This document shows positions 15,023 through 58,169 of a stretch of 64,000 bases of DNA, piece by piece. The first letter of the stretch is position 1. Every line of letters begins with the position of its first letter. The position numbers and the translations under genes are program-made. The notes under the pieces are model-generated. The model saw only the letters and a list, made by a program, of their open reading frames with translations. It was not told where the DNA came from and searched no databases. Location: the IMG/VR virus record IMGVR_UViG_3300031688_000003, positions 32,001 to 96,000 of that record; one strand, given 5' to 3'. This stretch comes from a virus.

Positions 15023-15033
15023 CTAATTGAAAA

Positions 15034-18000: not shown

Positions 18001-21000
18001 GGGGCAACTAGCTCAGGGATTGCAGCTCATTATTGTGCAATGAAGTATAATATAGATAATCAATATGGTCAACTAGAAGATATAAAACAAATACCTATTA
18101 GAGGATGCGTTGAATTTTTTGAAGACCAAATATTACTAGATGCAAGTGGTAACCCAATTATAAATAACTTAATAAGATTTAATTCTAAACCATTATTTGG
18201 TGGTGACTGCTATGTAAATAGATATACAGAGAAAGCTATTATGCCATTCTTCTGGGACTATTTAGCTGAAAATGAAAAAGATGGATTTGTATGGGATTAT
18301 AGATTATATCCTAATGTACCGTTTCCAACATATTGGATGAATACTGAAAAGTATAGACTTGATGAATTAACAAAACAGTTAGGTGGTGTTAATTTCGCTT
18401 TTGCAATAGCTTCAGGTTTTAATGGTGCCTTCCCTAATGATTATTATTACATGGATAGAGATCCAGCATCATGTAGTGGAGGTGGTTTATTTAGTAGCTT
18501 TAATGATGCAACAAATAGTAATCCAGGTTCATTATTTACTATACATGATGCATACATGTATCTTCACTGTAATGGAATTAATGATTTCTTTGTTGAGTCA
18601 GAATTAAATTTAGCTCAAAGAGATTGGGGGGAAGATATTGAAAAAAGACATTATGATAGTTTAACCTTTTCTGCATTGACAGATCTATTTCATGTAGATG
18701 GAATAAAGAAGGGTAATTATTATAAGTATGATAAGTCATTAAGTATTGAACAAAACTATAGTAGGACATTATCATGGGGGTTCATCCAGCCTAGATCATA
18801 TGATCCTACAGTAGCTGAAAAATGTTATATAACATGGAATAAAAGACTTGTGTATTCATTACAAGCTAAGAAAGAGGCTAAGAAGGATTTCTGGAGAGTC
18901 TTCCTTCCATTAAATTATAAAGAATTTAAGGACTCAGTTAATACTATTAAACCAATTAGCAAGACTGGTGCCATTGTATTATTTCCAAAACTTTCTCCAC
19001 AAATATTTACAGGTAATGATGAACTAACTACAGATGCTGGAACTAAAGTTGTTCTTGGTGATGGAGGATTATTTGCTGAAAGAAACTGGAGGGATATAGT
19101 AAACTCAGATATATCTCATGAATATGGATCATCTGAAAGTTCAAGAGCAGTGTTAAATACACCAATGGGATTATTTTTCATATCTCAAGAACAAGGAAAG
19201 ATATTTCAAACAGAAGGTAATTCACTAATCAATATTACTAATACAGGAATGAAGTGGTGGTTTAATAAATACTTACCATCACAACTATTAGCAACGTTCC
19301 CTGATGCTGAAGCATGTCCACAGATGATTGATAATCCAGTAGTATCTGCTGGTTGTCAAACTGTATATGATACAAACAATGATATTGTTTATTTTTCAAA
19401 AAGAGATTTTGCAGTAACTAATGCATTTGCAAATCAGTCAAACAACTGTATAGAGTATGTTCCATGTGAAGGGTTTTATCTAAATGAAACAATATGTAAC
19501 GGTGCATCACAAATAGTAACATGTCCAGATGGATATACTTATAATTCTGTTTCAGAAATGTGCGAGTTGATTACTTATGATTTACCTTTTGGACCACCAG
19601 CACCTGCATGTAAATTAGATATTGTTCTTTCTATTGATGCTTCATACTCAGTACCTTTACAATCTAATGTTAATAGCATGAGGTTAATTGTTCAAGGTAT
19701 TTTAGATGTGTTTGATAATGCTATGTCATTAGGTGATACACAAATAGGTATTATGGCTTGGGGAACTAGAGCATATGATGAAGGATCATTTAATGCTACT
19801 GCAATTGCATGTAATGGATTAAGAGCACCTGTAGCATTAACTTTTAACCCAAACTTATTAAATCAAACTACAGGTTTCATGAGTGAGTATACTTGTGCTT
19901 CTGGTACTTCAGCTTGTTGTCCAGGTGTACCTTGTGGTGGTAATGATTGTAATGTTACTGGGGGTACAGGATATGGAGATGCAGTATGGTCAGGTACAAA
20001 CTGGTTATTTAATCCTACACCAGGACCAGGTGGTACAGGTGCAAGACCTAATGTACCTAAAAAATTAATAATATTAAATGATGGTTGGGATGCAACATCA
20101 ACTGGTTGGGGTGGTACTAATCCAGATTCTACTGGAGCAGATAGAGCACTTACAAGACCTAATTATATAAACCTAGGTCAAACTTCTTCATTTGTAGCAA
20201 CACCAACAACACCTCCTATGGTAGCAACAGCTCCTGATACAGGTGTTGTAGGTAACATAAGTGCTGCACAACCTGATAACTTAGTTCAGTGGATACAAAC
20301 TAATATTCATGCAAATGCACAATATCAAGATCCTACTAATTCAAACTTTCTAGGTCAGTTAGAAATAATCCCTGGATGGTTAAAAAATAACAATACTCCA
20401 ACTGCAGCTGAAGAAGCTTATGCACAAAGTATTGCTGGATATGATGCTATAACAGGAGATCCTAATCCATATATGGCTGGTGACTTTCAAGCAGCTAATG
20501 TACAAGGTATTATAAATGACTTAGTTGAAAAAATATGTCCAGGTATTTTACCAAATTGTCCATCTGGTTGTACACCAGTTATACAAGGAGGTGTACCAAT
20601 GTGTGAATGTATAGATGAAGTTCCTGCTACATATGAAGATGTATTAACTTATATACCTTACCAATTAGAGAATCCTACATACTTCCAAGATGTTTCATGG
20701 ACAGTTAGTTATGATCCTAAAGCAAAAGCATGGATCTCATTTCATGATTGGCATCCTGAATTAGCATTCAATAGTATCAATCATTTCATGACATCTAAAA
20801 CAACAACAACTGAAATCCCACAATGTCCTCCTGGATATTCATTTAATAGTACTTTAGATGAATGTTGTATCACAGTAGCAGGATCTGATCCAGCATTTGT
20901 TGAAGTAAAATATATTCCATCAGATACAACTGTAGTAGATTCAGTCCAAACTGCTTTTTCAGTAGATACAGATATTGCATTAGTAATGGATGTATCTGGA

Positions 21001-22599
21001 TCAACTGCTCTACCTGGATGTATAATACCTTTCCCTACTAATTGTACATTTGGTGTACTTAGTGCACAAGTAGATTTTTGTACAGCATTTGTAAATGTTA
21101 TGTCTCCTGGTATGGCATCTGGAACTAACAATGTAAGAATTGGATTTGGAGTATGGGATAATGCAAATAGTGCTCAGGTAACAGGTTTAACAAGTAATGA
21201 TTCTACTCTAATAGATCCTATAGCAGGTTCAATAAGCACCTATGATGAAACGTCTGCTTCATATACAGCAGGAGGTACTAATTATGAAACAGCTGTATTA
21301 AGAGCAAGAGCAATGTTATCTGGATCAACAGCAACAAAAAAAGTTGTAATAATAATTACAGATACACAAAATAATACATGTGCTGCGTCCCCTCCAAATA
21401 ATATTTCTGCTGATTTATGGACTTGGAATGCAGCAGGTGGTGGTGATGTTGATACAATTGCTGTATTTGCTGATACTGTTGCTCCTGCAAATAATGGATG
21501 GTGGACTAATTTAAATTGTTTAGTTCAACTTGGTACTGCTGCACAAAGTATTGGTAATGATGCATTTGCAGTTGATTCTTCAAATTATGGAGATGTTGCA
21601 GTTAGTGTTATGAATTCACTTATTAGTTGTGATTGTCCAGTAAATACAGTTCCAGATATACCATCTATTCTTTGTAGTCCTGATCCTGGTGACCCATTAC
21701 CACAATGTGTATCATGTGAATGTCCAGCTGGATATACGCAAGTACCTGTTAATCAAGTTTGTAATTCATTAAATCCACCAACATGTAAGAAGGTAGATTG
21801 TAATTGTCCACCTATACCTGTATTAGATCCTTCATTAGCTACTACTTGGTTTGAGGCTGGAACACAATGTGATGATTTATTTTTAGTTGATACACCTGGT
21901 TATGTAAATCCAAATCCACTTATATGTAATTGGGAATATAAACAATGTGTACCTGCAAATTATACAGTTGGTGGTATGTGGAAACACAATGTAAGAAATG
22001 ATCTGTTTGTAAACTATTATGGAGAAGATTTCCCTTGGGAAGTTACACTAATAGAAAACACTGGTCAAGTTGTCAATACTCTAAGAAGTATAGAGTACCA
22101 ACAAGAATCATATGTATATAAGAATTTTAACTTACCACGTCCTCAGCAGCTTATAGGTACAGATAGATTCCATGATTTAGATTGGAACTTTGATGAAACA
22201 ATAATATATAATTCAGAACAGGTATCAGGATTATTAACTCTTGATCTTACTCCTAAGAATAATATTGTTTTACTTAATCAGTATCCTATAATTAATAATC
22301 CAACTGATATACAAATCCTATATTCTAAAGAAGAACAGAAATATAGATTTAATCAGTTCTGGGATATTACAGATGATAGAGGTGAGTTCACTGGAGTTGA
22401 AAGACCTATATGGATAACAACATTAAATGGGTATATTAAAAACTTAAATCAAGCAAATCTTAATTATATTAAAGCACCTTTGCAGCGTAAGAAGTTTAGA
22501 CATTACTATAATATGATTGTATTAAGAAAGAACGTATCAGGAGACAGAAAGATGTTACTTAAATTAAATAATACTAAAATGAATATATCATTTAGATAA
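15034..22599 (+). CDS. Muzzle / tail stabilisation protein (P22 gp10-like, crAss type) with two vWA insertions (2521 aa)
   Basis: crAss-type segments GMIKD, IYWDDSVNPSRTL, FLRDERYAFFIRFIYNTG.RS..YHIPGR, WESTELYP, CGMPIRHHKMP, FGGDCYVNRYT, SWTVSYDP...WISFHDW and RKKFRHYY. MIDAS DxSxS motifs lie at 19636 and 20989. Confidence 0.8.
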   Translation: MAKKQTPNPSLPQQTSSTESNLFMKGMIKDTFPSISGKEVWEHAINVINNSIDGDTGVIGNEPANFECAEIPYTIIGSIHIYGDHWAIFSTDDFSSEIGTFDDSKCEYTRLINDQCLNFNREHLIIGAAKENFECKYQIYWDDSVNPSRTLTLEDPPYLRIEVSGPSLNGAPCSIYENIQPLTLDCERIRLAPLIDTPCLDLQKAPEGGSLRNGMYQAFIAYTINEQVYGDFIGISNQQSLFEHDDSAGSLILTLSHLDKNFDNYKLVILGNNQEEFKFSEVGEYSTEQTTIKLDYLDQKLKSVPTEYMNKLTPALEKSKGMFVVNDYLVRTQPTNQFDFNYQPLANRIACNWTSVEYPADYYYNGGNKPTFLRDERYAFFIRFIYNTGERSSSYHIPGRAATYYSGSGVSMLETDVIPGDPNALDPTDQIFKVHNTAFVSQLNVNTVQPDGGILRTRGEMGYWESTELYPQDAVRWGDLCGMPIRHHKMPDENTANNGTTDRATPGGTGIYNIAVEFTGIPWPRDNAGNLIPNIVGYEFLVGSREGHKSILGKGILKNMEQYIPSDPSASDGSTSFFIPNYPYNDLTSDPYIKGPGGGGSVGYDSWSGLGYEDWLQGCDNPTGPYNRYSNSVFTFHSPDLMFNRPFLNAYELKSYGVISGTQTGRFKPSEKHPGEKLLRNSTAVLAAFIGVGYAIYAMRGSTDQKMTTGRVLDMGYREEGEITKRSGNNGTFSGGGAWTNLAGSSYNTGTWTGAGGGKGTFNASAPNNDRWQWTSANQISAANRANSPGTGTYDTAANGLFLGLGGITGGAASNKAGAVTWQAAQATNWQGQAGSIGPGQEIVQKGTKFSNKPFWMGLISGAQEFMNFVSTGGQEIIDLIYNLTSFKQYVYKYNSHGWYRNMSANPNGSIFRHSVNKSRYLNGAISQLTPSIRINNLNRPLTVAVELETNGNVDVNGLPTSSLPLPTGDNSKYTIGTAPGQCDWTNPGGATSSGIAAHYCAMKYNIDNQYGQLEDIKQIPIRGCVEFFEDQILLDASGNPIINNLIRFNSKPLFGGDCYVNRYTEKAIMPFFWDYLAENEKDGFVWDYRLYPNVPFPTYWMNTEKYRLDELTKQLGGVNFAFAIASGFNGAFPNDYYYMDRDPASCSGGGLFSSFNDATNSNPGSLFTIHDAYMYLHCNGINDFFVESELNLAQRDWGEDIEKRHYDSLTFSALTDLFHVDGIKKGNYYKYDKSLSIEQNYSRTLSWGFIQPRSYDPTVAEKCYITWNKRLVYSLQAKKEAKKDFWRVFLPLNYKEFKDSVNTIKPISKTGAIVLFPKLSPQIFTGNDELTTDAGTKVVLGDGGLFAERNWRDIVNSDISHEYGSSESSRAVLNTPMGLFFISQEQGKIFQTEGNSLINITNTGMKWWFNKYLPSQLLATFPDAEACPQMIDNPVVSAGCQTVYDTNNDIVYFSKRDFAVTNAFANQSNNCIEYVPCEGFYLNETICNGASQIVTCPDGYTYNSVSEMCELITYDLPFGPPAPACKLDIVLSIDASYSVPLQSNVNSMRLIVQGILDVFDNAMSLGDTQIGIMAWGTRAYDEGSFNATAIACNGLRAPVALTFNPNLLNQTTGFMSEYTCASGTSACCPGVPCGGNDCNVTGGTGYGDAVWSGTNWLFNPTPGPGGTGARPNVPKKLIILNDGWDATSTGWGGTNPDSTGADRALTRPNYINLGQTSSFVATPTTPPMVATAPDTGVVGNISAAQPDNLVQWIQTNIHANAQYQDPTNSNFLGQLEIIPGWLKNNNTPTAAEEAYAQSIAGYDAITGDPNPYMAGDFQAANVQGIINDLVEKICPGILPNCPSGCTPVIQGGVPMCECIDEVPATYEDVLTYIPYQLENPTYFQDVSWTVSYDPKAKAWISFHDWHPELAFNSINHFMTSKTTTTEIPQCPPGYSFNSTLDECCITVAGSDPAFVEVKYIPSDTTVVDSVQTAFSVDTDIALVMDVSGSTALPGCIIPFPTNCTFGVLSAQVDFCTAFVNVMSPGMASGTNNVRIGFGVWDNANSAQVTGLTSNDSTLIDPIAGSISTYDETSASYTAGGTNYETAVLRARAMLSGSTATKKVVIIITDTQNNTCAASPPNNISADLWTWNAAGGGDVDTIAVFADTVAPANNGWWTNLNCLVQLGTAAQSIGNDAFAVDSSNYGDVAVSVMNSLISCDCPVNTVPDIPSILCSPDPGDPLPQCVSCECPAGYTQVPVNQVCNSLNPPTCKKVDCNCPPIPVLDPSLATTWFEAGTQCDDLFLVDTPGYVNPNPLICNWEYKQCVPANYTVGGMWKHNVRNDLFVNYYGEDFPWEVTLIENTGQVVNTLRSIEYQQESYVYKNFNLPRPQQLIGTDRFHDLDWNFDETIIYNSEQVSGLLTLDLTPKNNIVLLNQYPIINNPTDIQILYSKEEQKYRFNQFWDITDDRGEFTGVERPIWITTLNGYIKNLNQANLNYIKAPLQRKKFRHYYNMIVLRKNVSGDRKMLLKLNNTKMNISFR

Positions 22600-25500
22600 T
22601 GGCATATAGTATAGACGGATATAAAAGAGATAGTAAGGATGTAAAGAAACCTTCCAACTTGATACCTTCAGGTAACATTACTATGAAGGGTGTAGACTTT
22701 CCTGTGATGGGTACAGACAATCTTGGTAATCAACAACTTATGCAACCTGGTCTTGATTATCAATTTCCTGGTAGTGAAGTCTTTGAACAACCTATGCAAA
22801 ATCTAACGCAAGATAAACCTAAGAATCAAGTAAAGAAAAGGAAAGTAGATAGAGATAATAAATTAATCACAAACTGGACTTCAGAAATGGGTGATGTATC
22901 TTCACACAAAATGACTAGTATGTCATTTACTGATGATGATGGTAATCCAATATATGTTGCTATTCCAATGTTGTTTCCTACTATTGAAGGACAAGAAACT
23001 CCTGATCCAGCATCATGGACTCAATTTGCAGAAGGTGATGAGATGTCTGCTTTTGAAATGGCTATGCAAAGAGGTGAAGTGTATTACTTTAATTCTGAAC
23101 AAGAATCACATAAGTTTGCTAAAGGTTCTTGGAAAACTCCAAACTTAAAGAAAAGAGATGGTGGTTTAATAAAGCATCAAGACATAGGGTCTAACAATCA
23201 TATTATAAATAATAGAGACTTAAGTGACCCTAATAGGAAGTTTATGAAGCCTACAATAAACTTAAGTAATTATGATGAGCTAGAAGAAACATTAGGAGAT
23301 ACGTCTTGGGTGGACATAATGTCAAAAATGTCTGAGGAAGAGTTTAACAATTTTGTTGCACCTTATAGTAAAAGAACAGATAGTTTAAACAATCTTAAAA
23401 GGTTTACAGGTGATGAGAGATGGTGGGCTGGTAATCTTGCTAATGTTATTTCTGATGAAGAATATGCAAAGGCAAATGAAAATCGTAAATGGACAAGAGA
23501 CAACCATAGAAAAGGGAACCTTCCTAATTATAGTGAAGTGGCACCACTTGGAAAATCTACAGAAGATGTATTTTATGATGCTGAAAAAGCTTACTATAAT
23601 ACACCAGTACACACTAAAGAAGAACTTAATGCTGACTTTGATACTGCTTATCCTTATACATTTAATTCAGTTGCTGGAACGGATCCTTTAAATAAGATAC
23701 CATGGAAGAATGAGATGAAGGATGATCCAGAAAAGTGGGAGGGTTCGTGGTCTGATTATATAAGAAGTACAGATATACAACCTGACTATTATGAAATAGG
23801 GGACATAACCCTTGCTGAAGAAAGTAATCCATTTCATTTTGTATATGACGGTGGAGATCAAGATGGAGAGACAGTTAATACAGCAGTTCCAGATAAAGGG
23901 ATAAAAGATATACAAGATGTACGTAGTCATGATGAATATATGAAATGGTATGATCATCATAAAAAGAGCGGTGTTCTTAATAATAAATCTAAAAAAGATA
24001 TGGATTATTGGGAAGCTTTAACTGATAAAGATAATAATGTATGGACATCTAACTTTAAATATACAGATGCATCACCAAGATATAAGGAACTAGATTTCCT
24101 TGAAAACCCTAATATGAATATATCAGATGGGGAAAGAGGGAGATTATCTGATAGATCTGAACAGTCGTTATCAAGATTTGAAACATTAACGGGTAGAGAT
24201 AGAAAGATGTATAATGATAACCATTTAAATGAAATGGAATATTTTAATTCAATTGGTATATTTGAAACTCCTTTAGATAAACCTATTGCCTACTATCCTA
24301 AAGAAGAAAGGATGGAGTTAATGAAAGTATTAAATGATTATGAAAAGAAACAAAATTCTGAAAATACAGCTTGGACAATAGATTATAAAAATTCTGAGTT
24401 TTATGGTAAAGAAAGAACATATAAGTATGGTGGTTCACTTCCAAAAGCTCAATTAAAGCAAGTTAAGAATGCATATGCTTTAACTAAGAGTTTAATTAAA
24501 GGTAAGCAGTTAGGTAAGGTTTTAAATAAATCATTAAAACTTAATGAATTTATTCCTAAAGCATCAAAGGCTCCAATCATACCAAAAAATAAAATAGCTT
24601 ATGTAACTCCTATAAATACAGATGTAAACATAAACATAGGTAATGATATAATATCTAATAACAAAACTGTAAATGCTGATAATAAATTTAGTTTACAATC
24701 AGATGTCTTTAAGAACAAAATACCATTAACAAGAGTATTAAGTTCTAAAGGTTTAAGATTTACGGATGGTAAATTATTTAGTTCAACAGAACCACATACA
24801 CATTATAAATCAGACAGCAGAGGTGAGGAATTTCCTCTTCGTTTAAAATCAACAAATAGAAATACCACACATTGGTCTTATGGTCATATAGGTAATCCTG
24901 GACATGGGGGTGGAAGTTGGTCAAAGAAGTCTACAGCTATCATTAATGATTATGAAAATTTGTCAAAATCTGGACTTGCCCTAGATCTTGATCCAACTGA
25001 TACATGGTTCTATTCTAAAGGTAATTTTGAAATACCTGCTAATTCATTAATCTTGACTAGAGATAAGACGTTATATAAGAAAATAAAAAAAGAAACAAAT
25101 ATTACAAATATAAAACTATTTGAAAATACTAATAATGAAGATTTTGAAAGTATTGTAAACTCATATTCTACAAGAGGAGGAAAAGGAGCATATACTAGAC
25201 CAACGGATGATATGATAAATCCTAAAGATCAGTTTTTTAATGCAGGAGAAGGTGAAATGATAATGAGAGACTATATGATAAAAAACTATAGTAAAGGAGA
25301 TGATGTATCTTTAACACAGACTGCGGATCACTATAAACCTCATCAGTGGCAAGGACATGATTTTGATTGGGTACACCCCTTTACTGGTAAAAAATCAGGT
25401 ATTACAACAATGCATCCAGATTTTGATCATTCTTATATGGATCTTGGAGATCCTTTTGGAGGAGGTCAGAGTAAGGCACACTCTGGTTCTCCATTATCTA

Positions 25501-28500
25501 CTATAGAAAGAATGGAATATAATTGGGGAGATAATATGACAACTAATCATGGATTATACAGTAGTAACAACAGATGGGGCAATGGTGATAGATCAGGAAG
25601 CTTAGATATATTAGCAAAATTACCAAAAACCATACAAGTAAATGAAATGGAGAAGGTAATGAAAACCTATAAAAATCAACGTGAAGGTCTTAGACTTCAA
25701 CAAGAACTAGCAGAATTAAACGGGTTTAAATCATATAAAGAATTCAAGAACTCAATATCAAAACAAGAATGGTTAGATTTTAAGAGAGATGGTGGCTCAC
25801 TAAACAAAGCACAATGGTGGAATCCTAAGAATGCATATGCTTTAGCTAATACTATATCTAAATCATTTAAACCAGCTAAATCACTTCTTCCTAAACCTAG
25901 TTTTAAAAATATAAACTACCAAAAATTATTACCTTTTACTGAATCAGGTTCTACTCTTGTTCCTCAAACCCATATGAGTAGTGGGAAGGAAGGAACTAGT
26001 ATGGATCTATCAGAGACATTAAATTCTATTTATGCTGATAACAAACCTATGTGGTTTGGTCCTACTGCAACAAGTAATAGATATAGAATGACAGATGATA
26101 ATAATAAATTTATTCCAACAATTCCTGGACAAGGTGGACTTTTTCAAGTAGGTTCTGGAAGACTTGGTAATACAGGTAAACCAGGTTTTGATGAAATACC
26201 ATTTACAGAAGCAACAATGCCATTTGGTGGTCTGGCAAATGATGGTTACCACCTTAATCTAGAAACTGGATTGCCTAATTACAATGATCCACTAATGGAT
26301 CACAAACTTTTAACAAAAAATGCTTTTCAAAATAAGATTGATGGTGTTTTTAATCCTAATACTAAGTTTAAAATATTTAAGAGTGACCTCTCCAAAGGTA
26401 ATCATGCAATGCACCAGAAATGGTCAGACAAAGAACTTGCTAAAATTAAAGCAGATGGGTATGATGCTATTCAACTTGTAGATCAAAATGGTAATCAGAT
26501 AGAAAATATATTACTTAATAAAGAAAAGTTTAAGATAAATAAGATCAATGATATGGATGTACACATTGACAATCCTGAATTCAAATATGGTGGATCACTA
26601 CCTAAGGCTCAATGGTACAATCTAAAGAATGCATATAATATCGGTAAGGGTTTAGTAAATACAATAAAGAGTCCTTTTATTAATGATTTAGTGCAAGGTA
26701 GTAATAAACTCTATAGGGGTATAGGACCAGCTGGATATAATAGTGCAGTAAATACTGGTAAGATACTATCAAATGTAAACCCAACTGCAGTAAATGAAGG
26801 TGCTTTTAATTTAACAAAGAACTTTGGAAATAAAACTTTTTTCACTCCTAATGTTGAAACAGCAAGTAAATATGGTGATGGTTATATAGCTGAAATAAAT
26901 AATGATGTTAATGATTTTAGTAATAGATATAATTCAGACTGGAGTCAGTTTACAACTGACCCTGTTTTCTTAAGTCAATCTAACATATATAAAATGAATA
27001 TGTTAGGAAATTATAAAAGAATACTTTCTCAAAATACAGTAGGAGATCATAGTAAAATAAACTTTTTAGATAATGTTAAACTTAGGACAAATTATACATC
27101 TAGTACAGGTTTAGATTATTATGGTCATAGAAATGTTAAACATAATATAAAAGGAGGATGGCCTACACAGTTAGAGGTTGAAAAACTAAAAAAAGATTCA
27201 GGTTTAACACTAACACAAGATAACTTAAGAAGTTATGTAGAAAAGATTGGTAAAGTTGGCGGTGGTAAATATCCTAAAACAACTTTATATAGATATGGTG
27301 ATATGGCTACAAATGCAGCTGGTAATAAAGACATGGGTTACTATTCAGCAGATCCACTTGATCCACTTAGATACAGTGAAAGAGCAGATAGAACTTTTAA
27401 TGGAAGTGTTTTTAAAATTGATGTTGAAAATGAATTACTACCAGAATTTTATAAAGGAATAGGATTTGGTAACCAAGGTAAAGAACCAGGATTTCAATCA
27501 GGAACATTATTTAAAGAATTTGAAGTTCCAGAAGATTTTTTAGGTAAATTTGGAAATCAACAAACTTTCAAAACTTTATCTGATTATAAAAAATGGCTTA
27601 ATACAGTTAAGCAATCTGGAGGATCATTAACTAAACATCAAGTTCCTAAATTAATTAAAGGTGCATTAGACTTAGGTAAGAAGGTGAAGAATATTATTTC
27701 TCCTAAAAATGTTAACTCAATTATAGATTGGAGTAAAGTCAGTCCTGCAATATTAGCTAATAAAAACTTATTAAGTGAATATGCTGATATAGAAATGGCA
27801 ACTAAAGCAAATGCAACATGGATGAAGAATGATGATGGTACTTCTTTCTGGGGTACACCTCAACAGTTTATTCAAGTAAATAGTGAGGCCTTTAAAAACT
27901 CTTATCCAGAAGGTTATAAAAGAGTATTCAGAGGTGAGTCAGGTACTTTGAAATTAACAGATCCTCTTTATTCAGGAGCTGCAGATATAGAATCAGGTAA
28001 TAAAGGTATATTTACAGCAAATGAAGGTTTAGCTAAACTATATACAAACGATTATAGATTAGGGTCAAATAGTAGTATTCTTCAATTAGCAATACCTAGT
28101 GTTAGTGATGGTAGCAAATACTTAAATATAAACGGTCTAGGTAATGATTGGACAGATCTTAGTTCTATAGGTACTACAAAAAAGACTCTTGAACTAAATA
28201 TAAAGAATTTAGAAAATAACATAAAGAAGGATGCAGAAGGATTTCAATGGGCATCTGGCAGTGGTAGTTTAGAAAGTTATGATGTAAATAAACACTTACA
28301 AAGTTATAAAGATTTTTACAATAACTATGATGAGATAGTTGCTAATCCTATCTATAAGAAATTACTTGAGTTTAAAGAAGCTGCTTGGGAAAATGACAAA
28401 ATTCTTAATGGGGGAAATTTAGCAGGACGACAAAGTTTTGGAACTGGAGATGTAGGTGACTTTATGGAAAAATCAGGTTTAAATAATATAAGATTAAACT

Positions 28501-35534: not shown

Positions 35535-38500
35535 ATGAAAGTCAAAATAAATAAATTACCTGAAGGGTATAAAGTTAAAAATGGACAGATTGTAAAAGTC
35601 ATGTCTATGGGTGGTGTTCCTTATAGTAATACTATAGGGCCTATTCCTGAACAGTTTGCTAATCTAGAAGCTGAAAAAGGTGAGACTGCACTTACTGATT
35701 TAACTAATGATGGAAACTATGAGCTATATAATATAGGTGGTAGAAGACATCAAGATGGTGGAACAAACTTAAGTTTACCACCTCAATCTTTTATCTTTTC
35801 TGATACAGCAAAGATGAAACTTAATAAGGCACAGCTACAAGACTTTGGTATCAACTCTACAAAGAAGATGTCACCTGCTGCAGTATCAAAGAAATTTCCA
35901 TTAAATAGATATTACTCTATTCTTAATGATGAGTTTGTAGATGATATAGCAACAAGAAGTTCTGAACTAATGTTAGATAAAAACAAAATGCAACTTTCAC
36001 ATTTAGCATTTGTATCAGAAAGTAAAAAGAAATTTGAAGACGGTGTACCATTAGCAGCATACCCATACTTAATGTCTAAGGATATTGATCCACAAGAATT
36101 TGTTCAGAAAGTAAATAAGCTAAATGAGGAACAAGCTCAAATGCAAATGATTGATCAATTACCACCAGAACAACAACAAGAGTTCTTAGCATTACAAGAT
36201 TTTACAGGAGGACAAGGAGGTCCCCCACAGGGAGGACCACAAGGAGGAATGCCCCCAATGGGACCACCACAAGGAGGAGGTATGCCACCACAAGGTATGA
36301 TGCCACCTCAACAAATGATGGCTAAATATGGTGGTGGTTTACCTAACTATCAAGAACTTGGAGCTTATGATCAGCAACTAGTATGTTCTCAATGTGGTAC
36401 ACCTGAAGGAGAACCTCATAATATGAGACATATGTTTATGCCAATACCTATTGGTGATTATATTAACCAAAATCCAAGAGCTACTCCTCCTGGAGCACCC
36501 CGAGGTACTATTACAACTGATGTAGCTTCTTATCCTCCTTTTGATGAGAATGGTAATTTTCAGAATGTAAATAAATTAAAAAAAGCTGAATTATTAACAC
36601 AGAAATATGGTGGAGGTTTACATAAGGCACAAATACAAGAAGAAATTCTATCAATACCACCTATACAAACACAAACTGTACCAAACTATAGTAAAACATC
36701 TGGTCTTGATATTTCTATACCTGGGAACTTTATGAAAGATCAACACTACACAGGTAGTGAAGCTATGAAGAACTGGCAAATAGAAAATGGATATGCATCT
36801 CAGTTTGATACATTTAATGTACCTGAAGGAAACGTGTTTTTTCAACAAGGTGGACCACCTGCAGCTCAACAACCACAAGGAGGACAAGGTGGTGGAGGAG
36901 AGATTGAACAAATAATGCAAATGGTTGGACAAGCTATGGAACAAGGTGCTCAACCTGAAGAAGTTATAGCAGAATTATTACAGAATCAAATTCCACCAGA
37001 AGTAGTAATGCAAATTTTTGGTCAATTAGGAATGCCACCACAGCAAGTAGAACAAATGATAATGGCTGTTATGCAACAAGTACAAGGAGGTCAGCAACAA
37101 ATGGCTGCACCCCAAGGACCACCTCCAGGCCCACCACAGGGTGGAATGCCACCAGAAATGATGGCTGCTATGCAACAAGGTCAAGGTCAAGGTCAACCAC
37201 AAATGAAGTATGGTGGTTTATTTAAAAATCAATCTGAATCTCCTGAAGGTCCATCAATGCACTTACCTTCTCAAAGGTTAGAAGAAGTAGAAGATATATT
37301 CCCTTTTAATGCAGCAGATTTTGCTAGTGAGTATCCACAAATTAGCTATGGTAGAGATATTAATGAAGGAATCAATCAAGGATCTTTAGTAGGAATAGCA
37401 GAAAGAGCTTTATCTGCTCAAAATGCTACTCCAGATCCTATGTATGATGGAAGATATAAAGATGACCCACAAGCAGATTATGCACAATCAGGTGGTGCAT
37501 TAAATAGATTTGTATATGGAGGTGAAGAATATATAGATAGATACACTGACTATGACAATACACCTATGGGGTTACCTAAAGCACAAGTTGGTAGTGGAAC
37601 CAAGTATGGTAATGATAACTATAATAATATGATGAATCTATATCAATCAGATGATTGGGATATGGTTAATGAATATGGTTATCAAACATATGAAAAAATG
37701 TATAGTTCAGGTAATTATGATATGGGATCTATGATGTCACAAGAAGAGTATGAAACACAATTTCTTGCTGATCAGAAATTTAAATACCTAATGAATGATC
37801 CAGGAGCATTATCCGAGATGGAAATTACATTACCTAATGGTACAGTAGTTAAAGGTGATAAACTTTTAGGTCATAAAGCTTGGGATAATCCTAATTCACA
37901 TGGTTTTACTATACCTAATGGAATGTATAAAGCAGTATATGAGGAGTTTTCTAAATTGAATCCAAATTTTGAGTTACCAGCTTTACCTGAAGATATAAGA
38001 GCAGATGTAAGACAAAAACAATCTGTGTTCAATAGTCTAGGTGGTTTATCTAAACATGCTGAGAAAATGTCTGCAGATGGAGATGATAGCTGGTCTAATT
38101 TAATTTCCAATGTTAATCTAGAAGCATTTGGTAATGATGATGATGGTGGGTTAGGTGAAGATAGATGGTCTAAAATTGATGGTAGATATGGTGATACATA
38201 TAATAGACAGTTAGTTACTATGAATAATGAACCAGGAGAAGAATCAACAAGAGATGTATCTACATGCTTTAATGATAAAGAAGGGAATCCAATTCAAGCT
38301 AAAGTAGCTGAACAACAGGCGTGTACAGAAAGAGGCGGTAATTATGATGTACAAGTTTGTAGATGTATAGAAAAAACAGAAATTATAACTAAACCTCCAG
38401 AAACACCTGAGTTCTGGAAACAAGATATAATGAAGTTAGATGCATTATCAGGCATAGATATAAATAAATACTATCCAAGTAGACAAAGTTTTACTGGTAA

Positions 38501-39260
38501 CTTTATGGATCCAGCATATAAAGATCCAACTAGAGAGATTGCAGCTATTGGTGAACAAGCACAGATTGCAGGAGATATGGCAGCATCAATGTCAAGTGGT
38601 CCTGGTTTATCATCTATTCTTGCTAAGATTCAAGGAACAGCTGGTGCACAAATTGCTGGTGCTCTTGATAAAGTTCAAAATGATAACATTAGTATTTACA
38701 ACGGTGCAGAACAATTTAATGCTGGTGTACAGACTAATACAGATGTGCTTAACCAAGATGCTGGTAAAACTTTTATGGATGCAGTTAACTTAGTAGATCA
38801 AAACTATGATAATGCAAGAAATGAATTAGATGTTCAGATAGCTGATATGCAAGCTAATGCTTGGACTAACATGGCTAATACAGCTAATCTAAATAGTTTG
38901 ACACCTGATTTAAAAGTTAGCCCAGCAAATGCAGGATTAATTAATGCTAATACTAGTAAGGCTTTAAATGCTAATGTTCCAGTAGATGCTCAATCTAGTA
39001 TGGATAAAAGATTAGCATTAGAGAAACAATACTATGATGCAAATTGTGGTAATATAAGTGATGATAAAGAAAAGGCTGCATGTAAGTTGGCAGCATCAAA
39101 AGCTGCTGATAAAACTATGAAGGCTTCTAATACAACAACACCACCTGCTACAGTAGTACCACCAGGTTATCAAGGTGAAGCTGGTAATACACTTAAAGAA
39201 ACCAAATATGGTAGCGAATTGAGAAGAGAGTTGATGATGAGAAGAGGAGGACAATGGTAG
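35535..39260 (+). CDS. crAss-like ejection/cargo protein (1241 aa) with Q/P/G/M-rich linkers and GG junctions
   Basis: N-terminal EAEKGE...IGGRRHQDGG...SFIFSD segment of the type seen in crAss-like cargo proteins; Gln/Asn/Ala-rich helical C-terminal region; KYGG junctions at 36324, 36603 and 37206. Confidence 0.6.
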   Translation: MKVKINKLPEGYKVKNGQIVKVMSMGGVPYSNTIGPIPEQFANLEAEKGETALTDLTNDGNYELYNIGGRRHQDGGTNLSLPPQSFIFSDTAKMKLNKAQLQDFGINSTKKMSPAAVSKKFPLNRYYSILNDEFVDDIATRSSELMLDKNKMQLSHLAFVSESKKKFEDGVPLAAYPYLMSKDIDPQEFVQKVNKLNEEQAQMQMIDQLPPEQQQEFLALQDFTGGQGGPPQGGPQGGMPPMGPPQGGGMPPQGMMPPQQMMAKYGGGLPNYQELGAYDQQLVCSQCGTPEGEPHNMRHMFMPIPIGDYINQNPRATPPGAPRGTITTDVASYPPFDENGNFQNVNKLKKAELLTQKYGGGLHKAQIQEEILSIPPIQTQTVPNYSKTSGLDISIPGNFMKDQHYTGSEAMKNWQIENGYASQFDTFNVPEGNVFFQQGGPPAAQQPQGGQGGGGEIEQIMQMVGQAMEQGAQPEEVIAELLQNQIPPEVVMQIFGQLGMPPQQVEQMIMAVMQQVQGGQQQMAAPQGPPPGPPQGGMPPEMMAAMQQGQGQGQPQMKYGGLFKNQSESPEGPSMHLPSQRLEEVEDIFPFNAADFASEYPQISYGRDINEGINQGSLVGIAERALSAQNATPDPMYDGRYKDDPQADYAQSGGALNRFVYGGEEYIDRYTDYDNTPMGLPKAQVGSGTKYGNDNYNNMMNLYQSDDWDMVNEYGYQTYEKMYSSGNYDMGSMMSQEEYETQFLADQKFKYLMNDPGALSEMEITLPNGTVVKGDKLLGHKAWDNPNSHGFTIPNGMYKAVYEEFSKLNPNFELPALPEDIRADVRQKQSVFNSLGGLSKHAEKMSADGDDSWSNLISNVNLEAFGNDDDGGLGEDRWSKIDGRYGDTYNRQLVTMNNEPGEESTRDVSTCFNDKEGNPIQAKVAEQQACTERGGNYDVQVCRCIEKTEIITKPPETPEFWKQDIMKLDALSGIDINKYYPSRQSFTGNFMDPAYKDPTREIAAIGEQAQIAGDMAASMSSGPGLSSILAKIQGTAGAQIAGALDKVQNDNISIYNGAEQFNAGVQTNTDVLNQDAGKTFMDAVNLVDQNYDNARNELDVQIADMQANAWTNMANTANLNSLTPDLKVSPANAGLINANTSKALNANVPVDAQSSMDKRLALEKQYYDANCGNISDDKEKAACKLAASKAADKTMKASNTTTPPATVVPPGYQGEAGNTLKETKYGSELRRELMMRRGGQW

Positions 39261-39322: not shown

Positions 39323-42300
39323 ATGGCAACATACATTCCAGGCGTAGAAGATAAAATTCCACAAAGTCAACCCTTTGTGCCAGATTATAAATTCCTATCA
39401 GATGTCTTACACACAAGACAGGATAGGTTTGATAAGAACTATAAACAATTAAATGATGTTTATGGTAAAGTGGTATATGCAGATCTAACAAGAAATGATA
39501 ACAAATATGTTAGAGATCAATATGCAGAACAACTTGCACCACAAATAAAACAAATTTCTGGATTAGATCTTTCTCTTCAAGAAAATGTTGATGCAGCATA
39601 TGGTTTATTTAAACCATTCTATGAAGACAAACAGGTTATTAAAGATTTAACTGCTACCGCAACTCTAAAGCAACAAAGAAAAAAGATGAGTTCTTTTAAA
39701 GATAGTTCTATAAGAGAAGTTAGAGAAAAGTACTGGGACTATGGAAGACAAGGATTAGATATTTGGCAAGAAGATTTTAAAAATGCTGATCCTCAAAAAG
39801 CTTTAGGTATGGGTTTACCTCAATACATTGAGGATGTTGACTTAGTTGAACAAGCAATGATATTGTTAGATAACTCTGAGTTAGGAGATACAACAAGTGA
39901 TGTAGATGTATCACAAGATAATAAATGGTTAATTACTCTAAAGAGTGGTTCATTAATTACTGCAGCTCCAACAGGTAGAATGATTGAAGTTAAAGATAGT
40001 AAGGGTAAAGTAATAATGGTTCCTGAAACTGAGAACCTAGCTCTTAATCATGTAAAGGATAGATTAATGGATGATCCTAAGGTTCAAGCTGCTTATCACT
40101 TAAGAAACTTTGTTGACATGAGAAATTATGTTAAGGAAAAGTCTGAAGAGTTAGGAGGTGACGATGCTGCTAAAAAAGCATGGGCAACTGAAACTATGGA
40201 AAAATATAAAACAAGATCTGAAGAAGATATTTCAAACCTAAGTAAAGTTAAAGAAACTAAAAAAATTGAAGTTAGTAGTTGGGAAGCATATGCTAATAAG
40301 ATAGGTATTGAACCTGGATCTGAAAATGATGTTAGCTTTCTAAATTCAATGGATGAATTAGAATTAATAAATAAAGTTATAACTTCTCAAACTCAAAGGT
40401 TACAAGATGCTACAGCACCTACTGATGATATTAAGAACTTACTTAATAAAGCTTATAGTCTAGCTATGGGTACTCAAATGGGTGATGATATGCTCACTTC
40501 TGCTTCTGCATATGCAAAAAAAACTCAGACCCGTGAGATAGAACCCAATCCTAATTACACAGCATGGGTTGAGCATCAATATGCAATGGCAAGGATTAAA
40601 TATAAAGAGGCATCTGATGCTGCTAAGGAAGAAAAGGAAAGCGTTTCTCAACCAATACAAGTACCTATATATAGATATAAAGCTGGAGACAAGTCTACAA
40701 CAGGTAAGAATACAACTTCTGATCCTGACCAAAATCTTTTAGAAACAATAATCAATGGTGACGATGCTACCTCTGATGCAATAGCATATAATAATGAAAC
40801 AACAACAAATGATATAAACTATAATGTAACTGAGCAAAAAAGAATTCTTAAGCAGGTATATTTAGCAAATGCTCAAGATTTAAATCTTGATCCTTCTAAA
40901 TTTACACCAATATTCTCTCCTGATTTAATGGTGGGAACTGGAAAATTAGAAATAGGAGAAATATATTATCCAGATGAGGTAACTCTAGACAATGGTATGG
41001 TAAACAAGGGTATACCACAAGAATATGGAACTGGTGTTATAGGAGAAATGAAAATGTTGCAAGAAAAGATTGTAGAAGAAAATAAACCTATAGCTCAAAG
41101 ATTAGTTAATTATCCAAAGTCTACATCAATGACATGGAATGAGTTTAATGATATTGAAGATTCAGATCAAATACATGACATGTATATGAACATGCTTAAT
41201 TTTATAGATAATGCTGATAATTACTTACCTTCTTACATGACATTAGATACAAAAACTAAATCAGATATTGCATATAGTATATATAACCTAAGAGGTAATA
41301 TGTCTATGTTTAATGAAGGTGTTGATAAGATGGCAGCTAATTACATGCAGGTTCAACAACATTTAGTAGGAACAGATGAGGACTTTAAATATGCTGCACA
41401 AGATGGAGGTTCTATTTTTAATAATGATGGTATACTTATAGATAGAGAAGAATGGAAAAAAAGATATGTAGATAAATGGACTAAAATATCAAATGCAGAA
41501 ATTAGGTCAAACATGACTCAACAGAATTTTCAAGGTGAGCAATTTCTACCTCCTAACATGTTAGACAATACACCTGATGATATTTTGCAGGCTATTAACA
41601 AAACTAAGGGTGATGGAACAAACACTCTTCCTGCAGCAGATGCAGACCTTAACCAAATGCAGATTATAAATGAAGAAGAGAATCAGATAAATGTTCCATG
41701 GTCTCTTACTAGTGGAAAATATTGGCAAGCAAATATGATGGGTACTGAAATGCCAGGTGGAAATGGAATACAAGAATACCACATTACTACACCCCAACCA
41801 AGATTTGATCAGATTCAAAACGATGCAGATTTATATTATGATTATATGTATGCTGAAATAAATAAAAAAATGACAAAAGATGGTGAAAATGCTGCTGAGT
41901 TTGGATTTAACTTAAGTGCACAGTTAAATGGTCAACCTGAAACTATAGGTGGAGATTTGTTTCAATCTGGAGAACATCAGTTTAAGTTTGATGAAAATGC
42001 ATCTACTGAAGTAAATGCTCCATCAGTAGACTTTGCAAATCAAGTACTAGAAATCTTAGATGGTGATCCATCAAGCTTTAGCGTATATGCAGGAGGTAAT
42101 ATAATACTAGAGAAGGGAGAAATACTAGGTGTTCAAAATCCTGAGATGATGAATGTTATCCAACAATGGTATTATTCAATGGGAGATAACTACGGTAATA
42201 ATAAAGCAGACGGAGGTGGTGCACCAAAAGCAGATGGTTTAGACTTCTCCATTTCTTATGCTAAGAATAGAGGTGGTTCTGATGCTGATGTTGCTGGATA

Positions 42301-42781
42301 TGAAATACACATTGGTACTGACTGGGCTAACTCAAGTGTATTAGGAAGATATGATAAAGAAACAGATGACTATATAACTGGAATGGTAACTGAGGATAAG
42401 AGTAAAGCATTTTTAACAGATAATGTAATTACAATTCTATTTGACAAAGCACTTGATAATAATAAATATAAAACTGGTGATAAAGAAACACAGTGGGTAA
42501 TGAATGAATTAAGTAACAATGATGGACGTATTGTTAGAAATGTACCAGGTGCAGGAACTATAACAATATTTAGTACAGGTGATGGTAGATATATGTATAG
42601 TGAACAATTAATCCAATATGAAGGTAATAAGAAAATACCATTTGCTGGACAACAAATAGAAATACCTGCTTCTCAAATAGCAAATGTTCTTGCTACCCAA
42701 CAACAAAGATTAACCGAAATGGGTACAGCAAATATGGAACAGCTTAAAGCATATAACATATCTAATAAAATTATACAATAG
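39323..42781 (+). CDS. Putative ejected virion protein (1152 aa), helical, immediately upstream of the virion RNAP
   Basis: Long helical/coiled N-terminal half and no recognisable catalytic motif. It occupies the position of the companion proteins next to crAss-like vRNAP genes. Confidence 0.6.
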   Translation: MATYIPGVEDKIPQSQPFVPDYKFLSDVLHTRQDRFDKNYKQLNDVYGKVVYADLTRNDNKYVRDQYAEQLAPQIKQISGLDLSLQENVDAAYGLFKPFYEDKQVIKDLTATATLKQQRKKMSSFKDSSIREVREKYWDYGRQGLDIWQEDFKNADPQKALGMGLPQYIEDVDLVEQAMILLDNSELGDTTSDVDVSQDNKWLITLKSGSLITAAPTGRMIEVKDSKGKVIMVPETENLALNHVKDRLMDDPKVQAAYHLRNFVDMRNYVKEKSEELGGDDAAKKAWATETMEKYKTRSEEDISNLSKVKETKKIEVSSWEAYANKIGIEPGSENDVSFLNSMDELELINKVITSQTQRLQDATAPTDDIKNLLNKAYSLAMGTQMGDDMLTSASAYAKKTQTREIEPNPNYTAWVEHQYAMARIKYKEASDAAKEEKESVSQPIQVPIYRYKAGDKSTTGKNTTSDPDQNLLETIINGDDATSDAIAYNNETTTNDINYNVTEQKRILKQVYLANAQDLNLDPSKFTPIFSPDLMVGTGKLEIGEIYYPDEVTLDNGMVNKGIPQEYGTGVIGEMKMLQEKIVEENKPIAQRLVNYPKSTSMTWNEFNDIEDSDQIHDMYMNMLNFIDNADNYLPSYMTLDTKTKSDIAYSIYNLRGNMSMFNEGVDKMAANYMQVQQHLVGTDEDFKYAAQDGGSIFNNDGILIDREEWKKRYVDKWTKISNAEIRSNMTQQNFQGEQFLPPNMLDNTPDDILQAINKTKGDGTNTLPAADADLNQMQIINEEENQINVPWSLTSGKYWQANMMGTEMPGGNGIQEYHITTPQPRFDQIQNDADLYYDYMYAEINKKMTKDGENAAEFGFNLSAQLNGQPETIGGDLFQSGEHQFKFDENASTEVNAPSVDFANQVLEILDGDPSSFSVYAGGNIILEKGEILGVQNPEMMNVIQQWYYSMGDNYGNNKADGGGAPKADGLDFSISYAKNRGGSDADVAGYEIHIGTDWANSSVLGRYDKETDDYITGMVTEDKSKAFLTDNVITILFDKALDNNKYKTGDKETQWVMNELSNNDGRIVRNVPGAGTITIFSTGDGRYMYSEQLIQYEGNKKIPFAGQQIEIPASQIANVLATQQQRLTEMGTANMEQLKAYNISNKIIQ

Positions 42782-42783
42782 GA

Positions 42784-58167: not shown

Positions 58168-58169
58168 AT

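Follow-up and report, generated by a model that had tools for sequence, protein, structure and literature searches.

Crassviruses are among the most abundant phages of the gut and sea. Elsewhere among phages, T7 gp16 is an ejection protein with a lytic-transglycosylase domain, and prohead proteases act on short motifs, T4 gp21 cutting at L/I-x-E with a capsid-targeting sequence and the phiKZ/SPN3US enzymes at S/A/G-x-E. In crAss001, the cargo proteins gp45 and gp46 (there called C1 and C2) were described by Bayfield et al. in 2023 (PMC10172136; PDB 7QOG and others), and the structure raised the question of how megadaltons of cargo protein are kept in crassvirus particles, put in order, and delivered. 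In 2017, Iyer, Burroughs, Anand, de Souza, and Aravind described the polyvalent proteins that phages and conjugative elements encode and predicted that zincin-like peptidases process them (PMC5512222). For crAss-like phages, a preprint reports polyproteins that are "likely cleaved" and a protease domain of zincin-like type (10.1101/2020.03.07.982082). The original prediction placed the locus studied here under the idea of an "effector magazine", which in its general form has been published under the name of polyvalent proteins (PMC5512222).

The window is a 64,000-nucleotide stretch of the IMG/VR virus record IMGVR_UViG_3300031688_000003, and all coordinates below are window positions on the + strand. 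Pfam searches of the 119-kb genome returned Crass_capsid, CrAss_Ring_1/2/3_4, and P22_portal; the source genome is a marine crassvirus (crAss-like phage). The gene order is ring1-ring2-muzzle-A-B-C-D-E-F. Ring protein 1 (223 aa), ring protein 2 (305 aa), and a muzzle-like 2521-aa protein (13434..22599) lie directly upstream of A, and the virion-RNA-polymerase-associated giants D (1152 aa), E (5127 aa), and F (1870 aa) occupy 39323..63782. Between them are encoded A (2629 aa, 22599..30488), a polyvalent cargo protein of 8 modules and 7 long tags, and the cargo proteins B (1654 aa, 30568..35532), with 6 modules and 5 long tags, and C (1241 aa, 35535..39260), with 3 long and several short tags. 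In crAss001 the cargo proteins are encoded at the corresponding place, past the muzzle gene and ahead of the genes for the virion RNA polymerase (compare gp44-gp50), and by synteny A, B, and C are probably cargo-type virion proteins that are carried in the particle and injected. Searches of Pfam and PHROGs with A, B, C, and each of the 18 modules gave nothing above noise, a tblastn search of 50,697 deposited phage genomes with A gave no match, and a related-locus search with D gave no close relative.

The long tag has the consensus [K/R]-[Y/D]-G-G-S-L-P-K-A-Q-x-G and is present in no protein of the genome other than these three. In A, the copies are A187 (KKRDGG-LIKHQ, with one residue deleted, 23148..23186; homologs P0002 and P0003 have the canonical KRDGGSLPKAQ here), A611 (YKYGGSLPKAQ, 24420..24458), A1065 (KRDGGSLNKAQ, 25782..25820), A1331 (FKYGGSLPKAQ, 26580..26618), A1674 (KQSGGSLTKHQ, 27609..27647), A2010 (RQKGGSLPKAQ, 28617..28655), and A2402 (FNKGGSVKAQ, with one residue deleted, 29793..29831). 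Those in B are B180 (FAYGGSLRKAQ, 31096..31134), B517 (MRDGGSLSKFQ, 32107..32145), B1012 (LKYGGSLPKAQ, 33592..33630), B1332 (GKYGTELPRAQ, 34552..34590, a G-T-E variant found in relatives too), and B1441 (AKYGGHLKAQ, with one residue deleted, 34879..34917). Protein C carries C266 (AKYGGGLPNYQ, 36321..36359; canonical MYGGSLPKAQ in the ortholog from the nearest relative, G018), C359 (QKYGGGLHKAQ, 36600..36638), and C677 (MGLPKAQ, 37554..37592), which is without the GG and, at 6.9 bits, the weakest copy.

The strict pattern GG-x-L-x-K-x-Q gives 5 + 3 + 1 = 9 matches, only in A, B, and C. A position matrix, which was built including these 9 strict copies so that only the degenerate copies are independent of it, finds 6 + 4 + 3 copies at ≥6 bits. 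In 20 shuffled proteomes the matrix gave 0.6 matches per proteome with a maximum of 12.6 bits, as compared to 17-41 bits for most real copies. When the one-residue-deletion copies A187, A2402, and B1441 are added, the total is exactly the 7, 5, and 3 of the original prediction. Its claim that no full copy occurs in the three downstream giants or the tail genes also stands: by pattern and matrix there is none in D, E, F, the muzzle, or the tail genes, D holding one weak 10-bit site. A loose regular expression matched the major capsid protein of all genomes, where the match reads GTMDYMGRSQ and is a false positive. The copies use different synonymous codons, as had been claimed (GGT, GGA, and GGC for Gly; TTA, CTA, CTT, and CTG for Leu; AAA and AAG for Lys), with a mean nucleotide identity of 0.71 over the 24-nt core. 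The tag is real and selected at the protein level.

Outside this genome, the exact motif is found in 28 other viral contigs which, where complete, are all crassviruses. The exact back-translated pattern gave 5 matches in cellular genomes (596 Gb), all of them in short frames or unrelated context. The tag is confined to crassvirus cargo proteins. A link to the phage chaperonin was rejected because Cpn60/Cpn10, encoded here, are encoded by 0 of 6 tag-bearing relatives. The original prediction knew of no characterization of the motif, and our search likewise found no account of GGSLPKAQ or parts of it in this sense in the searchable literature.

Between the tags lie 18 modules of 93-563 aa each, among which BLAST detects no mutual similarity beyond the first 21-28 residues after three tags, in agreement with the unrelated domains of roughly 90-500 aa first proposed. 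In the AlphaFold2 models pLDDT is below 50 at A2400-2426, which covers tag A2402, and at C23-25, and it dips at the A2595 GG, next to a module at 95+. The models place the tags in disordered linkers and not inside folds, which favors the original prediction, for which a motif buried in folded domains would have been the contrary outcome. Of 1220 BLAST alignment ends, 36% fall within 5 aa of a tag or terminus, as compared to 3% of random points. The nearest relative has a capsid protein that is 94% identical, yet only 15% of A is shared. Because homology with relatives begins and ends at the tags, these alignments indicate that the tags mark the borders at which modules are swapped between relatives, as the original prediction expected of domain boundaries. 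Both the disordered location and the homology breaks would also suit a passive joint, that is, a flexible, protease-resistant linker which insulates module folding and offers a safe point for cassette exchange. Such a joint does not need 8-12 residues conserved across phages with unrelated modules, and the DNA of the tag core is too dissimilar and too short to guide homologous recombination.

Several modules can be described further. Module A1 (22599..23162) is the conserved N-terminal module of the A family, and A8 (29808..30485) is its conserved end module, with a predicted lysozyme-like/lytic-transglycosylase fold. The A8 model aligns to phiKZ gp144 (3bkh) with a Z-score of 9.3 and an rmsd of 3.3 Å over 136 residues, and to MltE, MltF, and MltC with Z-scores of 8.0-8.2; the top rows are without exception lysozyme-like and span residues 53-216 of the model. 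On this modeling evidence A8 has a lytic-transglycosylase fold, with similarity over the whole catalytic domain. The Foldseek E-values for A8 are weak on their own, and a sequence search of the PDB with A8 gave nothing. A 30-sequence alignment of A8 contains the consensus V-E-S...G-L-Y-G-Q, with a candidate E-S motif. The leader and module C1 (35535..36224) make up a very widespread, confidently folded N-terminal cargo domain with at least 1185 homologs, for which fold searches returned no known fold. Homologs of A carry LysM, YkuD, and SLT domains. Pfam finds no ART-PolyVal in A itself; in homologs P0003 and P0023 this family scores 28.5 and 26.1 bits, under the 31.2 cutoff, in regions aligned to A5 and A6. 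The ESM Atlas gave only unnamed viral clusters for A1 and A5 and a 0.85 lead to Tox-ART-HYD1. We regard ADP-ribosyltransferase-like modules in A as putative. With 18 dissimilar modules, the A8 fold, and mosaic sharing, A, B, and C combine unrelated domains in one polypeptide as polyvalent proteins do.

A shorter form of the tag, hydrophobic-[K/Q/R]-x-G-G, is found at further sites, among them sites near protein ends: in B and C it lies 12-27 aa from the N-terminus, and in all three proteins 2-27 aa from the C-terminus. It is an addition to the motif as first described. EVYQQGG lies 17 aa from the N-terminus of B (30601..30633), and KVMSMGG ends the 27-aa leader of C (35595..35627), with Met at -3 in 113 of 120 homologs and an invariant GG. 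An indel hotspot of 14-62 aa follows directly after the GG of this leader tag in the C family. At the opposite end of C, MMRRGG is followed by QW and the stop codon as a C-terminal cap (39231..39257), and C-family proteins have an ending ...FYTGKMG-x in which the last residue is variable. The C-terminal tail of A holds KKKGG, where pLDDT dips, and YEEGG (30366..30449). In 38 of 139 relatives no more than 15 aa separate the last GG from the C-terminus (about 10% would be expected), and the single-module relatives open with a leader, for instance MRLKYQNGG, that is 8-21 aa long. Leaders and C-terminal tails outside the end tags are themselves conserved. The indel hotspot would be compatible with a passive joint. 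However, tags stand 2-3 residues from C-termini and 5-9 from the N-termini of single-module proteins, and these end tags count against a hinge because a hinge at a protein end joins nothing; we consider the passive joint improbable.

Short N-terminal leaders ending in GG, seen in B, C, and the single-module relatives, are also what would be expected of a T4-like capsid-targeting signal, clipped during head maturation by a prohead protease or by a clan CE/ubiquitin-like GG protease, which is the form that the original prediction took. The variable 2-3-residue trailers after C-terminal tags resemble those of ubiquitin-like precursors, and there is established precedent in T4 and phiKZ-like phages (for example PMC10052503). 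Pfam, to which remote homologs may be invisible, did not reveal such an enzyme in the genome: no C5/C48/C57, C39, or JAB protease is among the families listed (25 of 42 families, 80 ORFs) or in the 10 structural-module ORFs, and the ORFs between the portal and ring genes contain no peptidase family and no prohead protease. The genome search that had been proposed for a C48/C5/C57-like protease thus gave none among the families listed, only zincin-type candidates. After the GG, S or E is preferred and the next residue is L, I, or V in 46%. Pro at +1 occurs in 22 of 478 tags (4.6%, the background frequency) and in 4 of 122 long tags, which argues against obligatory cutting exactly after the GG. 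With no such protease among these families and no depletion of Pro, the analogy to clan CE and ubiquitin-like proteases is not supported. The crAss001 particle described next adds an uncut tag in mature virions (PMC10172136), and we consider a clipped capsid-targeting signal very unlikely.

The crAss001 protein gp45 is encoded at the same genome position as A, B, and C, with the muzzle gene on one side and the RNA-polymerase giants on the other. It resembles them in having seven short tags, which are of the AFGG/AYGG type, and each of the two pieces resolved in the structure corresponds to an inter-tag module; it differs in its length of 842 aa and in being without the S-L-P-K-A-Q extension. 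The gp45 tags are at residues 21, 210, 264, 333, 428, 563, and 822, and cutting at them would turn the 91-kDa protein into fragments of about 2-28 kDa. Residues 425-552 were built as one piece in the cryo-EM model of the virion (PMC10172136). This piece begins with the short tag AFGG (425-428), which is ordered and continuous with the portal-bound domain, and so that joint is intact in the mature crAss001 particle. A second piece, 214-245, is bound to the tail barrel and starts 4 aa past the GG at 209-210, and gp45 runs from N to C in the direction from tail to capsid. The structure paper (PMC10172136) does not mention the tags, and the crAss001 papers neither assign a band to gp45 nor report its cleavage. 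Sequence or fold homology of A, B, or C to gp45 could not be demonstrated, and a relation between module C1 and the part of gp45 that binds the portal is at most a lead: hhalign of the C1 alignment against gp45 gave a probability of 0.2 with short collinear similarities only, and Foldseek and VIA-align fold searches did not return gp45.

The ordered AFGG, the piece that starts just past a GG, and the collinear order of gp45 all fit an uncut docking or tether handle, by which the tags would anchor modules to a repeated site on the particle or an assembly factor, such as the portal, the ring proteins, or the inner wall of the capsid, for an ordered thread and an ordered exit. The length of the tag and its conservation on both sides of the GG, the tolerance of Pro, the end tags and single-module leaders, and the fact that no protease is tied to the tags fit as well. 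On the other hand, no partner was identified, the tags are disordered and unbound in both AlphaFold2 models, and the tags, which number about 27 in a protein set and have to be multiplied by several copies in each particle, exceed the known 12-fold sites. One handle per protein should also suffice, yet nearly every joint keeps a tag under selection. We consider an uncut handle possible, though less likely than not. A repeated packaging or ejection signal, the alternative offered by the original prediction, is likewise possible.

We rank above the uncut handle a reading of the tag as a putative processing site for a zincin-type peptidase that travels with the cargo and cuts at or after ejection; we favor it tentatively, with less than even confidence. 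Giant protein E contains a zincin-like motif, Y-HEAFH-x-VF...SEE (49219..49284), as a candidate co-packaged protease. The zincin region of E spans about residues 2000-2400. All E orthologs checked, from 6 relatives, have the motif unchanged, and so does crAss001 gp47, whose zincin region is in its C-terminal part. The HEAFH regions of E and gp47 match none of the peptidase families of Pfam, and a PDB sequence search with the zincin region of E gave nothing. HExxH occurs in 35 of 171 A-family proteins, at 45 sites as compared to 2.0 expected, and phi14:2 gp081 has two HExxH modules, each about 95 aa after a tag; A, B, and C of this genome have none. On the proposed mechanism, A, B, and C would be polyvalent cargo (ejection) proteins, strings of independently folding, exchangeable modules, in which every module border and protein end bears one short exposed recognition peptide with the core hydrophobic-[K/Q/R]-x-G-G, lengthened in this clade to the long tag. 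The role of the peptidase would fall to the HEAFH domain of E in this genome, to gp47 in crAss001, or to HExxH cassettes in the cargo proteins of many relatives. Cutting would take place at or after ejection, or at some joints only, and not in the finished particle, and the freed modules could reach separate targets in the cell wall and cytoplasm. A hydrophobic residue after the GG would suit the S1′ pocket of a zincin.

The cargo-traveling zincin candidates, the single tag per joint with end caps, and the linker location count for processing. Against it count the conserved part of about 12-14 residues on both sides of the GG, which is long for a protease site, the intact gp45 joint, the conservation of the leaders and tails outside the end tags, the failure of Pfam to recognize the E motif, and the lack of HExxH in A, B, and C. 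D, E, and F are also predicted to be packaged yet are essentially tag-free, so the link between zincin and tag is one of co-occurrence only; the same giants count against a docking handle, needing no tag, and against a capsid-targeting signal. Of the polyproteins originally proposed to be cut at GG into separately injected effectors, the cargo role (by synteny), the exchangeable cassettes, and the motif at their borders are retained, and the cleavage itself stays putative. The fuller proposal of a crassvirus polyprotein code, in which a GG tag at every border would be cut by a packaged zincin inside the host to give separate effectors and, by ensuring correct release, would let cassettes be swapped freely, we hold slightly more loosely.

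A tag at every cargo-module border predicts where to seek termini in proteomics and which residues to mutate, sets module boundaries for hundreds of dark-matter domains, and points to co-packaged zincin-like domains as the candidate enzyme. As a cut site, the tag would point to a polyprotein system by which a phage injects effectors; as a handle, it would represent the first docking code for the cargo of a phage. On both readings, the cargo proteins of crassviruses can be divided automatically into their functional units.

T7 gp16 is an ejected internal protein with a lytic-transglycosylase module, as A probably is too; in A the module is C-terminal and set off by tags. Prohead-protease systems share with the tag one short motif that recurs in several packaged, ejected proteins, including N-terminal leaders; their motif is another one, and here no prohead protease was found and the tag lies between complete exchangeable modules, not only after propeptides. 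The sites of adenovirus protease and clan CE ((M/I/L)-x-G-G|x) and ubiquitin-like GG sites have an upstream hydrophobic residue and short variable C-terminal trailers in common with the tag, whereas in the tag the hydrophobic residue is one place further upstream, K/Q/R and a downstream half are conserved, and Pro after the GG is tolerated. Polymorphic toxins (VENN in CdiA, DPxGL in Rhs) also place a fixed short peptide at the point of cassette exchange, with one junction before one C-terminal toxin, as compared to up to 7 junctions per protein plus end caps in a virion setting here. Polyvalent proteins (PMC5512222) are, like A, B, and C, giant, composed of many unrelated domains, delivered with DNA, and mosaic in their evolution, and they include ADP-ribosyltransferase, peptidoglycan-attacking, and zincin-like peptidase domains. 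No junction peptide is described for them in PMC5512222, in which the words "linker" and "glycine" are absent, whereas here the joints and ends carry a fixed tag.

The source IMG/VR record is 119,271 bp long and rated complete, and Pfam searches of its ORFs matched the crassvirus major capsid protein, tail ring proteins 1, 2, and 3/4, and a P22-like portal. Three tag-bearing giants, A (2629 aa, 22599-30488), B (1654 aa, 30568-35532), and C (1241 aa, 35535-39260), lie directly downstream of 223-aa, 305-aa, and 2521-aa proteins that match virion structural families in PHROGs; the locus reads ring 1, ring 2, muzzle-like giant, A, B, C, and then D (1152 aa), E (5127 aa), and F (1870 aa), the virion-RNA-polymerase-associated giants (39323-63782). 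In the cultured crassvirus crAss001, the gp44 muzzle is followed by cargo proteins C1 and C2 (gp45 and gp46) and by the RNA-polymerase-associated gp47, gp49, and gp50, which are found in virions (PMC10172136). Because the layout of muzzle, then cargo, then RNA-polymerase-associated giants is the same here, A, B, and C are predicted by synteny to be cargo or ejection proteins. The window also encodes a 2198-aa protein (648-7244) in which leucine-rich repeats are combined with fn3 and EndoS-type LRR domains; a role in receptor binding or as a tail fibre is probable. Elsewhere the genome encodes a full chaperonin pair (Pfam Cpn60_TCP1, E 6e-78, genome 6871-8505, minus strand, with Cpn10 nearby), and the Cpn60 gene is absent from six of six related crassvirus genomes. 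One ORF outside the window has a match (E 1.6e-7) to Por_Secre_tail, the C-terminal sorting domain of type IX secretion, which points to a predicted Bacteroidota host. The relative G019 (IMGVR_UViG_3300030098_004828, 245,646 bp) has two crassvirus capsid genes ~127 kb apart and, instead of a jumbo phage, probably represents a concatemer or two joined genomes.

In this genome, all nine matches to the strict pattern GG-x-L-x-K-x-Q lie in A, B, and C. A position matrix built from these copies and others from viral contigs, and hence partly circular for the nine, returns at a threshold of 6 bits six copies in A, four in B, three in C, and one weak site in D; the originally predicted counts of seven, five, and three are reached once three copies with a one-residue deletion are included. 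Shuffled proteomes (n = 20) gave 0.6 matches per proteome with a maximum of 12.6 bits, against 17-41 bits for most real copies. Bias extends to positions that were not used to pick the copies (K/A/F/Y at -3, K/Q/R at -2, Y/D at -1, G at +9, and E at +11). As predicted, the codons of the tag vary synonymously at nearly every position, and the core averages 0.71 nucleotide identity between copies, so selection acts on the peptide and not on a DNA repeat.

The 18 modules between tags (93-563 aa) have no mutual similarity except for 21-28 residues directly after three tags. Homologs of A (n = 25) share 3-42% of its length at 31-92% identity, and of 1220 BLAST alignment ends, 36% lie no more than 5 residues from a tag or terminus (random points, 3%) and 46% no more than 10 residues away (random points, 5%). 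The N- and C-terminal modules of A, A1 and A8, are retained among relatives while its middle is shuffled; the nearest relative has a 94% identical capsid protein and an 85% identical portal, yet shares only 15% of A. LysM, YkuD, SLT, and sub-threshold ART-PolyVal domains occur in the homologs. These sequence comparisons support the tags as cassette borders, and they agree with the earlier claim that the motif separates unrelated, swappable domains. Tags buried inside continuous folds, and not in linkers, would have refuted the original prediction. In AlphaFold2 models, C 1-230 (10 homologs, mean pLDDT 83.5) forms a small leader hairpin, drops below pLDDT 50 at residues 23-25, just before GG, and continues into a confident domain, and A 2380-2629 (30 homologs, mean pLDDT 83.6) reaches 95+ across module A8 but stays below 50 over A2400-2426, tag included, with a second dip at the next GG (A2595). 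Since confidence is low at the tags and high in the adjoining modules, the tags are modelled as linkers, and the original prediction withstands this structural test. Module A8 resembles the phiKZ gp144 lytic transglycosylase (Z 9.3, rmsd 3.3 Å, 136 residues) and MltE, MltF, and MltC (Z 8.0-8.2), and all top rows are lysozyme-like, with Foldseek E-values that are weak by themselves. Fold searches found no known fold for C1, the N-terminal module of C.

The short form, hydrophobic-(K/Q/R)-x-G-G, also serves as a joint, because in longer relatives the chain continues past the end of A as K-P-x-M-Q-x-G-G and runs directly into a LysM domain. Across seven genomes, GG density is 8.6 per 1000 aa in tag-bearing proteins versus 3.95 in all others (2.2 times). 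Short tags, matched by regular expressions that include false positives, lie 17 (B) and 26 (C) residues from the N-termini and 2-27 residues from the C-termini of A, B, and C. A library of 1.84 billion proteins contains 215 cluster representatives of module A8, and 38 of 139 A8-family proteins have their last GG no more than 15 residues from the C-terminus (~10% expected); many database proteins in these comparisons are fragments. Versions that consist of a single free-standing module open with a basic leader (8-21 residues) that ends in the core; one example is M-R-L-K-Y-Q-N-G-G. Among the best 120 of at least 1185 homologs of C1, Met stands at -3 in 113 and GG is present in all 120, the stretch between GG and the following conserved block spans 14 to 62 residues, and most C-termini read ...F-Y-T-G-K-M-G plus one variable residue, with 24 ending exactly in GG. 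A tag so close to a protein end has nothing to join, which makes a pure hinge unlikely, and we rank the passive joint third, as an improbable reading. After its last GG, B ends (35428-35529) in a conserved ...Y-x-x-L-I-A-A-G-A-D-I-E-I-I; the same peptide closes the last cargo gene of three relatives (G020, G010, and G011) and may act as a docking element in its own right at the C-terminus.

In one of its two readings, the original prediction had these proteins cut at GG by analogy with clan CE proteases. In crAss001 gp45 we find seven short tags (GG at 20, 209, 263, 332, 427, 562, and 821), and the two pieces resolved by cryo-EM, residues 214-245 and 425-552 (PMC10172136), both coincide with inter-tag modules. 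The second starts at the tag A-F-G-G and is modelled as one chain, so this joint appears intact in virions, an argument based on the residue ranges stated in that paper. An uncut docking or tether handle, which we rank second and regard as possible, gains from this observation. The same intact joint speaks against a T4-like signal clipped before maturation, ranked fourth and very unlikely; among the Pfam matches listed (25 of 42 matched families) there is no prohead protease, nor any clan CE, C39, or JAB protease. Pro follows GG at background frequency (22 of 478 tags; 4 of 122 long tags), which argues against cutting exactly after GG. Neither cleavage nor the clan CE analogy found support.

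The explanation we rank first, and favor tentatively, is a processing site that would be used at or after ejection. It draws support from the single conserved tag per joint, the leaders, and the short variable trailers, and from zincin-type motifs that travel with the cargo. The motif Y-HEAFH-x-VF...SEE in E (49219-49284), unrecognised by Pfam, is invariant in the E proteins of all six relatives, distant orthologs included, and identical in the virion protein gp47 of crAss001 (residue 2157). Among 171 A-family proteins, 35 contain HExxH (45 sites versus 2.0 expected). A preprint on the phi14:2 RNA polymerase notes that a neighbouring virion protein has a zincin-like protease domain, and it calls the fused giants "likely cleaved" (10.1101/2020.03.07.982082). 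In the same Cellulophaga phage, gp081 (L079:20360-22141), an MS-confirmed virion protein, contains two repeats; each has a GG tag (..V-G-G-G-M-V-D-P-P.. and ..M-G-G-P-V-D-P-P..) and, ~95 aa on, an HExxH module with the motif HEF-x-H, an arrangement that resembles a pair of tagged zincin-like cassettes within a single cargo protein. After GG, S/E is preferred, then L/I/V, an order that would, we infer, suit a zincin cutting before a hydrophobic residue. In relatives, D, E, and F are packaged although they have no tag, so the tag is no general signal for packaging and the link between zincin and tag is only circumstantial. A second putative protease candidate is a 388-aa protein (genome 116812-117978, minus strand) with a DUF2201_N putative metallopeptidase domain (HELLH) and a VWA-like DUF2201 domain, 56-85% identical in five relatives and the counterpart of crAss001 gp77.

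Back-translated exact Y-G-G-S-L-P-K-A-Q was found in 28 further IMG/VR contigs, always in frame within large ORFs and often alongside further copies, and the crassvirus capsid family is present in 15 of 20 tag-bearing records, including all six that are ≥90% complete. The same search of 596 Gb of bacterial and archaeal genomes gave five matches, all in short frames or unrelated context. The complete relative G010 has a 2737-aa protein with five long tags upstream of its portal gene (G010:C1:34844-43057), far from the usual cargo locus, so the tag follows protein type and not locus. Single tag-like sites also occur outside the cargo locus in a 109-aa protein (G011:C1:70212-70541; Y-G-M-G-G-S-M-R-K-K-Q) and a 197-aa protein (G017:C1:57944-58537; K-S-G-G-T-I-K-K-A-Q-N-G). 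The motif was not found in any paper of the searched literature, and the conserved junction and end tag appears to be undescribed; the class itself, polyvalent or cargo proteins with a zincin-like domain nearby, is already known. The published description of polyvalent proteins (PMC5512222), whose multidomain mosaic picture A and its homologs share, mentions no junction peptide.
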